DNA of 64,000 nt, taken from the IMG/VR virus record IMGVR_UViG_3300009181_000042, positions 38,746-102,745 of that record; one strand, 5' to 3'. The notes beneath the pieces are model-generated. The model did no database searches, was not told where the DNA came from, and saw only the letters and a program-made list of their open reading frames with translations. Shown here in pieces: positions 34,026 through 51,860 of the stretch. Both the position numbers and the translations under genes were made by a program. Source of the DNA: a virus. Within the stretch, counting starts at the first letter, position 1. Each line of letters begins with the position of its first letter.

Positions 34026-34988
34026 ATGAAGATAGCTGTATATGGTCTGGCAAAAAATGACCTAAATTTGATAGATCGATGGATTCACAGCGTGTCACCC
34101 GCTGATTATCTCGTCATTGGTGATCTTGGTAGCAGCGACGGCAGCGTAGATGTGCTGCGAAGTAACACCGTGACAGTGCATGAGATCAGCATGAGCAGAT
34201 TGCGATTTGATCGTGCTCGAAACACAGTATTAAATCTACTACCAAATGATACCGACGTTTGTATCAGTTGCGACCTCAGAGAATTTATGATGCCTGGGTG
34301 GCGATCGAACATCGAAAGGAGCTGGGTGTCAGGCAGCACCCGCATGATACACTCGTATGTACAAAGTTTCAACTTAGATCAGTATCCACCATTTAGATCA
34401 GCTGAGAACATGATACATGCTAGACATGGATCAAACTGGCGTCGTCCGATACGAGAACGTCTTGGATCAACTACACTAGACAAATGGATAACCAACCTCG
34501 ATATAGTGTTGTGCCATAATGGCGAGCCCTATATCGATGCAGCCGAACTGTTAGATTTGTTACAAGTATCGCATGCTGAAGATCCTACTTGCTTGGAAAC
34601 TATGTTCTTGTTTGGCAGCGAGCTTGCACATCGAGGTATCAAACCACATGCAATTACTATGTTGCGCAAGTTCCTCAATGCGCCATCGATTGGGTTATCG
34701 GTCGAACGTAGTGAAGCCTGGCGCTTGTTAGCTGGTCTCGAGCCGCATGAGAAGTTGAAGAATCTACGTCTTAGCACAATAGCAGATCAGACTCGTCGAG
34801 AGCCTTGGTTAGAGCTCTGTGAGCATTATCTAAAGGTATCCGATTGGGCCAATCTCTACGCTGCTTGCAAGGAAGCTATGCAAATACAAAAAAACACACT
34901 TAACAGCGCTGATAATCCCGATGCATGGAGCAATCGATTCTCAGAATTGCAAAGCACTGCTATAGCTGAACTTGGTATATCAAAATGA
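34026..34988 (+). CDS. GT2-like glycosyltransferase with TPR-like tail, degenerate DxD
   Basis: DLGSSDGS, RFDRARN, CISCDLRE; helical C-terminus paralogous to 35646 and 36715. Confidence 0.75.
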   Translation: MKIAVYGLAKNDLNLIDRWIHSVSPADYLVIGDLGSSDGSVDVLRSNTVTVHEISMSRLRFDRARNTVLNLLPNDTDVCISCDLREFMMPGWRSNIERSWVSGSTRMIHSYVQSFNLDQYPPFRSAENMIHARHGSNWRRPIRERLGSTTLDKWITNLDIVLCHNGEPYIDAAELLDLLQVSHAEDPTCLETMFLFGSELAHRGIKPHAITMLRKFLNAPSIGLSVERSEAWRLLAGLEPHEKLKNLRLSTIADQTRREPWLELCEHYLKVSDWANLYAACKEAMQIQKNTLNSADNPDAWSNRFSELQSTAIAELGISK

Positions 34989-35644
34989 CCACGTTGGCAC
35001 TGTGTTTTGCAGGTCTACCTCGCATAACAGACACTAGCACTGATAGCTGGCGTCGACTGATAGAACAACACAATACTGATGTATTTGTGCATGCATGGTC
35101 AACTGAGACAGAACTTGCTCGCAACTGGATCAGTGCTACCTATGCACCAGTTGAAATGATAATAGATGCCCCTCGACAGTTTGATACAAGCCGATATGTT
35201 AACAGGATCTGGGCGTACATATCAGAACCTCGTAATGTGCTAAGCATGTGGTACAGCATAGCACAAAGCTTGTCGCTTGCTGATAGGTATGCGCATGCAC
35301 ATCGCAAGACCTATGATTATGTTGCACGAGCTCGGTTTGATTGGCACTGTGACCAGTTCACGCTAGAAACATATGACGGCCTAACAGTACCGGATGATCC
35401 GGGTCTTTGCAATCACAATTTCCAGCACAGAGGACAATGGTATGTGGCACACAATGATCAATTTGGTTATGGCAGCATGCACGTGATGCGAGACTACGGT
35501 GAAACATTCTCGAGGATACCCTGGTTATATGCCACAGATGGCATAGACTTCTGCAGTGAATTATTTTTAACAACAAATATGATAACCAAGCAAATTCCGG
35601 TTAAATTACAAAAGGGCATGCGCTATCGCATGGTAAGGAACTGA
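34985..35644 (+). CDS. putative glycosyltransferase-like protein
   Basis: LALCFAGLPR, DVFVHAW, SMWYSI, YDYVARARFD, NDQFGYG. Confidence 0.6.
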   Translation: MTTLALCFAGLPRITDTSTDSWRRLIEQHNTDVFVHAWSTETELARNWISATYAPVEMIIDAPRQFDTSRYVNRIWAYISEPRNVLSMWYSIAQSLSLADRYAHAHRKTYDYVARARFDWHCDQFTLETYDGLTVPDDPGLCNHNFQHRGQWYVAHNDQFGYGSMHVMRDYGETFSRIPWLYATDGIDFCSELFLTTNMITKQIPVKLQKGMRYRMVRN

Positions 35645-49100: not shown

Positions 49101-51860
49101 ACTGGTTATAGTGGTCCAACAGGTCCTACTGGTGCTGCCTCTGTGATTACAGGTCCAATTGGCTATACTGGGCCAACTGGTGCAACCGGCCCACAAGGCA
49201 CGGGATCAACTGGTTATAGTGGTCCTACTGGTCCTACTGGTGCTACATCAACTGTGTCGGGGCCTACTGGTTATACTGGCGCAACTGGCCCTACCGGACC
49301 GCTAGGTACAGGAACTACTGGCTATAGCGGACCAACCGGTCCTACAGGTGCCACAAGTGTAGTAACAGGTCCTACAGGTTATACTGGTTATACTGGTGCA
49401 ACAGGTGCACAAGGCACAGGATCAATTGTGACAGGTCCTACTGGTTATACTGGCCCAACTGGCTTGCAAGGCGCACCGGGTACTGCGGTAAACACAGGTG
49501 CTACCGGTCCGACCGGTAATGCTGCTACTGGTACAACTGGTGCCACAGGCCCAACTGGTCCTAGCGGTGGTCCGATCGGTCCGACAGGCCCAACTGGAGC
49601 AAGCGGCGCAGCTGGTACTGCAGCTAACACAGGTGCGACTGGTCCACAAGGCACGGGTGCCACAGGCCCAACTGGTCCTAGCGGTGGCCCAATCGGTCCC
49701 ACAGGTCCAACCGGAGCAAGCGGCACACCTGGTAGCGCAGTCAACACGGGTGCAACTGGTCCACAAGGCACTGGTGCCACAGGCCCAACTGGTCCTAGCG
49801 GTGGCCCAATCGGTGCAACTGGTCCAACTGGCGCAAGCGGCACAGCTGGTAGTGCAGTCAACACAGGTGCAACTGGTCCAACTGGGGCTACAGGTGCGAC
49901 TGGTCCTGCTAATAGCACTGGTGCTAGTCAGTGGATCAGCAATACCACTGCTGGTGGCAGCGGGTATGATATCTACTATCCACCGTTGTCACAGATGGGC
50001 ACAAGCGGCAGCGGCAACGTCGGTATTGGCACGTCAGTTACCACAGGAATAGGTGGATCAAACAACCTCTCTGTTGGTGGTAACGTCTATGTCAGGCAGC
50101 AGCATTTTGGTAATGCCAGCGACGGTCTCACTAATCCTAGCTATTCATGGTTGGGAGACAAGACCACTGGTCTGTACAGGTATGCTACCAACACCATCGG
50201 TGTTGTTGCTAACAGCCTCAATGCACTACGCATAGGTCCTAACACTGGTAATACTTCGATTGGTGCTACCAATCAGATAGCTGCCAATGGCGATTTCTTT
50301 GCTAGTGGCGCTATAGTGCCTAGCTCCAGCTTGAACACGTCAGAGAATACAAAAGGTATCAGATGGCCCAACGCTGGCACTGCAAGCGGAAGTGCTTGGC
50401 TCAATCTCTATCAAACTCCTGCAACTCCTATCTACACTACGTTTGAGATTGGTACTGGGGTTGACACGCATGATATAATGTATTTAAATGCCAGCGGGTT
50501 TGTCGGTATCAAGAACGCAGCACCTGCATATACAGTTGATCTCACCGGCGATCTCAACATAACTGGCACATATTATCTGAATGGCACGCCGATAGGAACA
50601 GGATCTGGAAGTGTTACTTCGATAGCAGTAAACACTAACACTACTGGCTTGCTGACATCTGCTGCGACAACCCAGACCATCACTACCAGTGGCACATTCA
50701 GCTTAACATGGGCCAGCACAGCACCAGGTAACGGTCCATATGTGCCAACTGTTAACACGCTGGGCTTTGCTACCAACAGTGCAGAGCGCATGCGCATACT
50801 GCCACTAGGCAACCTTATGATTGGAAGCACGCTAACACCGGCAGGTGGCAACGCTACTGTGGTCATAGACGGTTTGGGTACCAATGGCGGCGGCATCGAA
50901 CTAGTAGGTGGCAATGCATCGGGTGGCGGTAACATCAGTGGTCTTAGTGCTGGCGGATTAACGTTTAGCACATTTACCGGTACTGTTGGGTCGGAAGTAT
51001 ATACTGATAGGGCCAGGATAGACGCAGCTGGTAACTTTGGTATAGCAACTGCTACTGCGTTTAGCACACTAGATGTCAATGGTGTGATATCTGCTAGAAC
51101 GGCGTTCAGCACTGCTGGATCTGCTACAGTAGCAAGCCTAACCAGTAATGGTGCTATAAGCGGTACAACAGCCACTCTTAACAATTCCACTGGTGCGCAA
51201 CTAACGTTTAGCGGTGCTACTAGCAACTGGGCAACATTTGGTACAGTTGGATCTGCAGCACCTGCGCTTAATTCTACCACAGCCGGTACCAAGGTTATAT
51301 TCAATAGCAACCTAGGAACGGTAAGCACCAACTATGCAGTGGGTATTGCCAACTCTAGCACCACTGCACCACTTAGCACTGCTCCTGGTACACTGTGGTT
51401 TAGTTTACCAGCAGCTAACATACTGCACCAGTTCCAGTGGTATGGTGGGGCAACTGTGCTAGCCACGATGTGGGGTAATGGTAACTTGGCAGTCACAGGC
51501 GAAGTCACGGCCTACTTCTCTGATGCGCGTCTCAAGGACAATGTGGTGGTAATAACCGATGCTGTGCACAAGGTCAGGCAGATCAGAGGTGTGTACTATA
51601 ATGCCAGCGACGCAGCAGTTAACTTGCTAGGCGAAGACAAGACTGTGCAAAAAGTTGGTTTGCTGGCACAAGAAGTCGAAGCCATATTGCCCAATGTTAT
51701 ACGTCCGGCACCGTTTGATGTTGGTAACGATGGTCTCAGCAAGAGCGGTGAGAACTATCTCACGCTGCAATACGAGCGAGTGATACCTCTGTTGGTTGAA
51801 GCTATCAAGGAACTCAAGTCTGAGGTAGATACTCTTAAAGCACGCTTGGACGCACAATAA
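46182..51860 (+). CDS. collagen-like long fibre with C-terminal intramolecular chaperone (peptidase S74)
   Basis: (G-X-T)n about 46359-49905; [11 protein letters not shown]...[12 protein letters not shown]...[15 protein letters not shown]. Confidence 0.9.
46359..49905 (+). repeat. Gly-Xaa-Thr coding triplet array, interrupted at about 48283-48460
   Basis: 9-bp periodic GGN-NNN-ACN pattern. Confidence 0.92.

Follow-up and report, generated by a model that had tools for sequence, protein, structure and literature searches.

GT2-TPR glycosyltransferases and threonine-rich collagen-like tail fibers in a huge phage: a probable system of fiber O-glycosylation

Introduction

The protein BclA of Bacillus anthracis carries O-linked oligosaccharides on its GPT-rich collagen repeats, with specialized sugars that come from dedicated operons. 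In Clostridioides difficile, the glycosyltransferase (GT) SgtA, 358 amino acids (aa) long, combines a GT-A domain with tetratricopeptide repeats (TPR) and, supplied with uridine diphosphate N-acetylglucosamine (UDP-GlcNAc) and Mn2+, places beta-O-GlcNAc on several Thr of peptides from the collagen region of BclA3 in vitro (PMC7157674). Mycobacteriophages encode GTs that modify their own virion proteins (Freeman et al., 2023, as cited in PMC12619734). Virion glycosylation by mycobacteriophage GTs and O-glycosylation of Gly-Xaa-Thr (GXT) repeats by a GT-A plus TPR enzyme in C. difficile spores are both established. Here we describe a 64-kb stretch of viral DNA (the whole of it is called the window in what follows), positions 38,746–102,745 of the IMG/VR record IMGVR_UViG_3300009181_000042, which contains a nine-gene operon with three genes for GTs of the GT2 family with C-terminal TPR (GT2-TPR) and four genes for proteins with collagen-like GXT repeats. 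We consider it probable that at least one of the GT2-TPR enzymes O-glycosylates the GXT repeats of the phage's own fibers.

The window is the final part of a record of 102,745 bp with a CheckV completeness of ~20%. Homologs of its genes are found on contigs of 250–518 kb, two of which are complete (one of 518,643 bp that has terminal repeats, the other of 490,380 bp). As the complete relatives have about 0.5 Mb, the window is a piece of a huge phage. A megablast comparison of the GT region with 50,697 phage records gave zero matches, and a closely related cultured phage is thus lacking by DNA similarity. In papers on aquatic phages, the GTs found near tail-fiber genes have been ascribed to the modification of DNA or of the host surface, and in the full-text literature, subscription journals excepted, we found no paper linking the GT2-TPR family with phage collagen-like fibers. 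The mycobacteriophage precedent is similar in that phage-encoded transferases act on the phage's virion proteins, but what is modified there (Freeman et al., 2023, as cited in PMC12619734) is the C-terminal tail of the capsid and tail-tube subunits rather than a collagen repeat.

Sequence and fold of the GT2-TPR enzymes

The three GT2-TPR genes listed in the initial annotation are indeed members of one family, since all of them match phrog_13126 (E-values in Table 1), with mutual identities of 31–34%. Pfam GT2 and TPR domains were detected in paralogs 2 and 3, and no Pfam match was obtained for paralog 1, which has a shorter C-terminus (the TPR part) and carries D-L-R-E where the other two have D-x-D-E. 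An alignment of 28 diverse GT2-TPR sequences was used for the analysis of motifs and for an AlphaFold2 (AF2) model. Several GT-A motifs, DTGSTD, RFD and D-x-D-E among them, show little or no variation across this alignment, and these three are present in paralogs 2 and 3. In the AF2 model of paralog 3 (predicted local distance difference test, pLDDT, 93; predicted template modeling score, pTM, 0.80), residues 1–165 form a beta/alpha GT-A domain and residues 175–355 a series of helical repeats. The architecture of the GT2-TPR enzymes is that of a single soluble polypeptide of ~360 aa with an N-terminal GT-A domain, C-terminal TPR and no transmembrane segment.

When the whole length of the model was compared by Foldseek, the glycocin S-glycosyltransferases SunS and ThuS appeared on top (E 2e-15), and this match to peptide GTs outscored the polysaccharide GTs. 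A profile search of PDB sequences matched the GT domain to the flagellin O-GlcNAc transferase GmaR (E 4.8e-7) and the remainder of the enzyme to a consensus TPR (E 7e-23), while a single GT searched by phmmer against PDB returned TPR noise only. The top fold and profile matches indicate that the closest characterized relatives modify proteins or peptides in the cytoplasm. SunS and ThuS (PDB 7msn, 7msp, 7msk) share the two-domain fold with the phage GT2-TPR. However, the identity is just 14–16%, they act on a Cys or Ser of small helical precursors of bacteriocins, and they are encoded with exporters and thiol-disulfide enzymes, none of which is found in or beside the phage operon. The Listeria GmaR (PDB 22ao), compared here through its GT domain, is another GT-A plus TPR protein O-glycosyltransferase that acts on the subunit of a surface filament before assembly, but its target is flagellin, not collagen, and GmaR is also an anti-repressor.

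Two other functions could be imagined for proteins of this kind. Glycosylation of the phage DNA against restriction, a classical role of phage GTs, appears extremely improbable: the TPR domain and the SunS-like fold indicate a protein or peptide acceptor, no known DNA GT of GT2-TPR architecture was found among the structural matches, a late, virion-type motif precedes the operon, and the linkage to collagens described below would be left without explanation. The second would make of the GT2-TPR proteins mainly TPR chaperones or assembly factors for the trimerization of collagen, with a GT activity that has been lost or is of minor or regulatory importance. Extended peptides are bound by TPR domains, paralog 2 weakly matches (E 0.001) the TPR with which prolyl 4-hydroxylase binds collagen, the metal motif of paralog 1 is degenerate, and genes coding for ClpB-like and DnaJ proteins are located nearby. 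Yet the GT-A motifs are kept throughout the 28 diverse sequences, the operon adds two more GT-fold proteins and a nucleotidyltransferase, and SgtA is catalytically active (PMC7157674), all of which makes a pure assembly role very unlikely.

Linkage with collagen-like genes in phages

A target of these enzymes is suggested by the kind of gene that is found next to them. A profile-guided scan of IMG/VR gave at least 517 viral-contig loci with GT2-TPR, of which 80 were fetched. An open reading frame (ORF) was scored as a Thr-rich collagen if it had 10 or more triplets and 40% or more of its Yaa positions were Thr. The co-occurrence of GT2-TPR and GXT collagens across phage genomes, which the initial annotation had put forward as a check, was found and has a strong direction: over 81 viral loci there were 72 Thr-rich collagen ORFs upstream on the GT strand, two upstream on the opposite strand and six downstream. 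The amounts of flanking DNA compared (519 versus 570 kb) were comparable, and the downstream flanks served as the control. A control seeded by PhoH produced six loci, too few, and was replaced by these downstream flanks together with the generic collagen-seeded set described in the next section. The distances from the GT to the nearest collagen cluster at 13–40, ~140, 350, 600, 1250 and 2200 nt, which indicates that there are several distinct architectures. Clustering of the GTs at 70% identity gave 32 clusters. In 22 of them a collagen ORF is located 5 kb or less from the GT, and in 21 of the 22 it is Thr-rich.

Outside the loci of the window's own lineage (L004–L007) what recurs is the GT and the collagen repeats, and the other genes of the operon do not recur. 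The only other segment of the window that was detected there is the N-terminal domain of the fiber starting at 41567, present in eight further loci. One of the GT-adjacent viral collagens carries the receptor-binding N-terminus Mtd_N. A cultured representative of the arrangement is the Actinomycetia phage DSL-LC01, in which two collagen genes, a hypothetical gene, a gene annotated as a halogenase and the GT follow one another on one strand.

The DSL-LC01 gene located between the collagen genes and GT2-TPR, in the same operon (102.2–103.8 kb), is annotated more precisely as a tryptophan halogenase and may code for a second fiber-modifying enzyme.

The proximity to fibers might also be explained if the enzymes altered the envelope glycans of the host (lipopolysaccharide, LPS, teichoic acid or capsule) against superinfection, the neighborhood of the fibers being that of host-range islands. 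We regard this as quite unlikely. The whole-length fold match is to peptide GTs, above the polysaccharide GTs, and the operon proteins checked have no membrane segment and no flippase or Gtr-like character. The linkage, moreover, is to Thr-rich collagens and not to tail fibers in general, and the same gene pair is found beside BclA-type proteins in bacterial chromosomes. Finally, the GT gene is kept at 60–89% identity across the megaphage lineage, unlike what would be seen in a moron.

In the jumbo phages PaBG, Lu11, Y3 and NCTB a more distant homolog (25–34% identity) is flanked by the genes for DNA ligase and the head protease, and this PaBG-type subfamily may act on a different target. The four clustered collagen-like proteins of these jumbo phages (PaBG 195.5–204.5 kb, Lu11 184.5–195.5 kb, Y3 66–76 kb and NCTB 92–104.5 kb; loci L096–L099), which also encode the GT2-TPR homolog with a SunS-like (S-glycosyltransferase) fold, each show a single Cys as Xaa, within the conserved pattern G-x-x-G-C-x-G-P. 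It is pure speculation that this Cys could be a disulfide knot or a site of S-glycosylation.

Threonine content of the collagens

The specificity for Thr was assessed with a generic control of 115 viral loci, seeded by a composition-neutral collagen pattern (GG at a 9-nt period), in which the largest collagen ORF was scored. The Yaa-Thr fraction of this set had a median of 0.13, with 23% of the loci at 0.4 or above, versus medians of 0.60 and 0.71 in the GT-seeded viral and bacterial loci, respectively (Mann-Whitney p ~4e-12 and ~4e-11, values in which relatedness is not corrected for). Two complete megaphages differ jointly in the presence of GT2-TPR and in the Thr content of their collagens. 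In G306 (518 kb), two GT2-TPR genes (493.3–495.4 kb) adjoin the fibers at 499–507 kb, and each of the six collagen proteins is Thr-rich (0.51–0.78). In G307 (490 kb) no GT2-TPR was detected at E ≤ 1e-8, and the three collagens of this phage belong to a Gln/Lys/Asp type with a Thr fraction of 0.04–0.16.

As to the window itself, the presence of four GXT-collagen proteins with hundreds of Yaa-Thr, already noted in the initial annotation, was confirmed by counting runs of at least four Gly-Xaa-Yaa (GXY) triplets per protein (Table 1). The four add up to 293 Yaa-Thr, 86% of them in the protein 46182–51860 alone, in which the commonest triplets are GPT (110), GAT (60) and GYT (30). Its collagen part has no Cys and would measure ~280 nm if wholly triple-helical. 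Pfam Collagen was matched by this protein (E 1e-104) and by that starting at 41567 (E 1e-11), and both minus-strand proteins remained under the curated cut-off. Tail-fiber PHROG matches were obtained for all four, for 41567 and 46182 also outside the repeats. The C-terminus of the first is the phrog_17885 tail-fiber domain and that of the second a Peptidase_S74.

Two giant ORFs are located at the sides of the fiber genes, one at 14707–21867 on the minus strand (2386 aa) and the other at 51914–64000 on the plus strand (>4029 aa, open at the contig end). Both have almost no Pro, and in searches against Pfam and PHROG they gave no Pfam match and a sole, weak PHROG match (phrog_697, "structural protein"). 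They may be additional or alternative substrates of glycosylation. Taken further, the main targets of the GT2-TPR enzymes would be these Thr/Ser-rich proteins, or the non-collagen parts of the fibers, instead of the GXT repeats. The giant proteins contain 23–24% Thr + Ser and have the motif CTAAATA in front, a giant Gly-rich protein is likewise encoded upstream of the collagen-GT block in DSL-LC01, the targets of the mycobacteriophage GTs are capsid and tail-tube termini (Freeman et al., 2023, as cited in PMC12619734), and the PaBG-type homologs are not beside collagens. We consider this alternative unlikely all the same, because the partner that is conserved in phages and bacteria is a collagen-like ORF of the Thr-rich kind and most GT loci contain nothing that corresponds to the giant proteins.

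Bacterial relatives and comparison with SgtA

A scan of species-representative bacterial genomes gave at least 292 relatives, of which the best 80 were examined. These have 29–43% identity (most of them 34–43%), are nearly all full-length and belong almost without exception to Bacillota (Brevibacillus, Metabacillus, Lacrimispora, Clostridium, Oscillospiraceae and others). A collagen ORF was located within 8 kb in 37 of the 80 loci, was Thr-dominant in 34 of these 37, and in many cases ends 150 nt or less upstream of the GT. Two remoter members (E 1e-27 and 1e-31) also have a GXT collagen beside them, one of 1696 aa and the other of >343 aa. One of the bacterial GT-adjacent collagens has a BclA_C domain, with 98 bits and above the cut-off.

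Tandem pairs of GT2-TPR are found in several Bacillota genomes (G001, G093 and G224; loci L426 and L427), mirroring the expansion of paralogs in the megaphage. In L427 the tandem pair is flanked on both sides by collagen genes.

The resemblance to the SgtA/BclA3 system is twofold. In both cases the enzyme is soluble, has ~358 aa and starts with a GT-A domain followed by TPR at the C-terminus, and in both its gene is paired with that of a surface fiber with collagen-like (Gly-Xaa-Thr)n repeats. There are also differences: the fibers belong to the spore coat there and to phage tails here, a single GT there corresponds here to three paralogs, two GT6-like enzymes and a putative sugar-activation module, and in the window lineage the GT operon and the fiber genes do not adjoin. 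The window fibers have S74 chaperone and phrog_17885 C-termini, without BclA_C. The description of the window proteins as BclA-like has to be qualified accordingly. The central (GXT)n collagen region is present as in the BclA family, and the same gene pair exists in Bacillota, once with a BclA_C neighbor, but no BclA_C (C1q/TNF-like) domain was detected by Pfam in the four collagen proteins of the window, which are tail fibers with other C-terminal domains and not members of the BclA family.

The operon and its surroundings

The three GT2-TPR genes are the sixth, eighth and ninth of an operon at 30616–37788 on the plus strand (Table 1), in which neighboring genes overlap by 4 nt or stand 1–17 nt apart. 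The protein DUF7796 b was modeled and compared by Foldseek, with BoGT6a and the ABO transferases on top (E 4e-7, template modeling score ~0.55, 10–14% identity), and it is probably a glycan-extending enzyme. Its paralog DUF7796 a is, by sequence similarity, a probable GT6-like glycosyltransferase. Counting both DUF7796 genes along with the three GT2-TPR genes, there are five GT-like genes in the operon. None of the seven operon proteins checked, among them all five GT-like ones, has transmembrane-like segments. Family and fold assignments revealed no precursor peptide or exporter, as found in glycocin loci, among the operon genes, and no NCBIfam equivalog was found among their products.

Table 1. 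Genes and motif of the glycosyltransferase operon and of the collagen-like fibers in the window. Positions are those of the window; L004–L007 are the loci of its own lineage.
Feature	Position	Strand	Remarks
Late-promoter-like motif TTTAAATA	30581–30588	+	28 nt before the first gene of the operon (30616)
Sugar-1-phosphate nucleotidyltransferase	30616–31329	+	Pfam NTP_transferase E 2e-9; phrog_3980 E 7e-61; all NCBIfam matches below cut-off
Small cupin-like protein	31326–31664	+	weak Pirin/cupin match, E 0.002; 4-nt overlap with the preceding stop; kept in L004–L007
RuBisCO-like protein, 380 aa	31661–32803	+	Pfam RuBisCO_large E 5e-37; under every NCBIfam cut-off
157-aa protein, phrog_34507	32820–33293	+	kept in L004–L007
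DUF7796 protein a	33281–34018	+	Pfam DUF7796 E 4e-7; paralog of DUF7796 b, 20% identity
GT2-TPR paralog 1	34026–34988	+	divergent; phrog_13126 E 8e-49; 31% identity to paralog 3
DUF7796 protein b	34985–35644	+	predicted GT-A fold like GT6 retaining transferases; AF2 pLDDT 93.6
GT2-TPR paralog 2	35646–36713	+	Pfam GT2 and TPR, weak TPR_P4H; phrog_13126 E 3e-85
GT2-TPR paralog 3	36715–37788	+	Pfam GT2 and TPR; phrog_13126 E 5e-92; the one modeled
Tail-fiber-like protein, 737 aa	21933–24146	-	17 GXY triplets, 8 with Thr in Yaa
Virion/fiber protein, 443 aa	24160–25491	-	23 GXY triplets (10 Thr); CTAAATA at 25513
Tail fiber protein	41567–45730	+	29 GXY triplets (22 Thr); CTAAATA at 41533; phrog_17885 E 3e-84, C-terminal part
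131-aa protein between both fiber genes	45740–46135	+	phrog_1276 E 6e-5; kept in L004 and L005; possibly an assembly factor
Fiber, 1892 aa	46182–51860	+	331 GXY triplets (253 Thr); C-terminal S74 intramolecular chaperone; CTAAATA at 46151

The first gene codes for a putative activator of the sugar donor. The RuBisCO-like protein has its best PDB relatives among form III enzymes, and its best matches are form III RuBisCO, OiaX and MtnW. The block 30616–33293 that includes its gene is kept in the relatives L004–L006. The RuBisCO-like gene is translationally coupled and stands between the genes of the cupin-like and the 157-aa proteins, with the nucleotidyltransferase upstream. Terminator-like hairpins at 38525–38542 (plus strand) and 38694–38677 (minus strand) close the operon unit. 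Past the operon's final stop, a protein of 202 aa (37804–38412), for which a family search found nothing, has its own TAAATA 5 nt after that stop and is kept only in L004 and L005. A phage-borne chaperone set is encoded on the minus strand between the minus-strand fiber genes and the GT operon (26088–29778). It consists of a double AAA+ chaperone of the ClpB/ClpA kind with 761 aa, a peptide deformylase with 171 aa and a complete DnaJ with 298 aa, and could serve the folding of the giant fibers.

The motif that precedes the operon (Table 1) has its TAAATA core in common with the fiber and virion genes. CTAAATA stands before the fiber genes 41567, 46182, 51914, 25491 (minus strand) and 21867 (minus strand), and TATAAATA before two virion-protein/PhoH genes. 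The motif is not enriched in number (7 CTAAATA, 6.4 expected); it is its position that is peculiar, as 7 of 7 are outside the long frames taken as genes and 6 of 7 are aimed at a gene start just downstream. The shorter TAAATA is slightly depleted in the window (20 sites versus 26.6 expected), and ~13 of the 20 are concentrated in a few short spacers, in sense orientation and just before gene starts (examples are those at 9766, 21907, 25513, 30583, 37793, 40662, 41479, 41534, 46152 and 51869). Owing to this location in short spacers aimed at gene starts, the TAAATA sites look like T4-type late promoters of the virion genes and of the GT operon. The three GT2-TPR genes had been described as being under the same promoter motif. 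The operon does share the motif of the fiber genes, but there is one motif for the whole operon, not three. A separate promoter for each GT2-TPR gene is ruled out, as the gaps are of 7, 1 and 1 nt or replaced by overlaps and leave no intergenic room.

Discussion

We infer that the GXT fibers are glycosylated by the phage itself, as had been proposed in the initial annotation, from four lines of evidence: relatives that are protein GTs, a directional and Thr-specific linkage to collagens, the same pairs of genes in Bacillota, and the precedent of SgtA. There are several facts that weigh against it. In the window the GT operon and the fiber genes are not adjacent but form separate transcription units at least 3.8 kb apart, with minus-strand virion, PhoH and phosphoribosyltransferase genes in between, so that the pairing is looser than that of the family and consists of one 20-kb region shared by GT and collagen genes. 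Ten of the 32 GT clusters have no collagen ORF within 5 kb, many of the contigs being cut close to the GT. The collagens of PaBG, Lu11, Y3 and NCTB are charged, only partly Thr-bearing and ~18–90 kb away from the GT. At 60% identity, most GTs of the viral sample belong to a single broad clade, and the statistics given above ignore shared ancestry. The FastTree tree is unrooted and has long branches. Paralog 1 is without the second Asp of the metal-binding motif, and SgtA was likened to the phage GT2-TPR by its published description.

The search in the reverse direction also goes against a strict association. The GT was present in 8 of 80 viral loci seeded with five consecutive GPT codon triplets and in 3 of the 26 Thr-rich loci of the generic collagen set. 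The GT predicts a Thr-rich collagen far better than a collagen predicts the GT and, with just 8 of 80 GPT-seeded loci having it, the enzyme would be an accessory of a minority of the Thr-rich phage collagens.

If fiber glycosylation is nevertheless accepted as the function, the operon 30616–37788 would be a late-expressed, cytoplasmic system of protein O-glycosylation for the collagen-like tail fibers of the phage. The lack of transmembrane-like segments and the TAAATA motif in common with the virion genes support its being cytoplasmic and late. The TPR half would bind the extended (Gly-Xaa-Thr)n chains ahead of trimerization, and the GT-A half would put the first sugar on Yaa-Thr, perhaps a beta-O-linked N-acetylhexosamine by analogy with SgtA and GmaR. 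Both GT6-like DUF7796 enzymes might then lengthen the glycan, with the activated sugar provided by the nucleotidyltransferase together with the cupin-like, RuBisCO-like and 157-aa proteins. The outcome would be fibers with up to ~290 O-glycans, most of them on the ~280-nm fiber 46182–51860. Whereas the initial annotation had suggested stability, shielding or adhesion as possible purposes, the likely benefits would be stability of the triple helix without hydroxyproline and protection from proteases.

What appears to be new is the setting rather than the enzymatic logic, which is known: an apparently widespread viral distribution, an operon with five transferases and an unusual donor module that contains a RuBisCO-like protein. 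A broader and decidedly tentative proposal, on which we would not insist, is that GT2-TPR and Thr-rich collagen make up a co-evolving module across spore-formers and hundreds of environmental phages that has grown here to a five-transferase operon with RuBisCO-like-assisted synthesis of the donor. Were this to be true, many phage tail fibers would be glycoproteins, here with a heavily glycosylated fiber of ~280 nm, and a RuBisCO-family enzyme would be placed for the first time in glycan biosynthesis.

For the family as a whole, with its at least 517 viral-contig and at least 292 bacterial loci, glycosylation of collagen-like fibers offers a specific alternative to the routine annotation as auxiliary genes for the modification of host LPS or phage DNA. 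If Yaa-Thr is O-glycosylated, this would explain the folding of hydroxyproline-free phage collagens of up to 330 triplets, with consequences for the modeling, expression and engineering of receptor-binding proteins, and the presence of the GT would predict Yaa-Thr and be usable as a phylogenetic marker. Virion glycosylation, so far known from mycobacteriophages, would extend to many aquatic phages and megaphages, and the fibers of phages would be tied by evolution to the BclA system of the spore surface.

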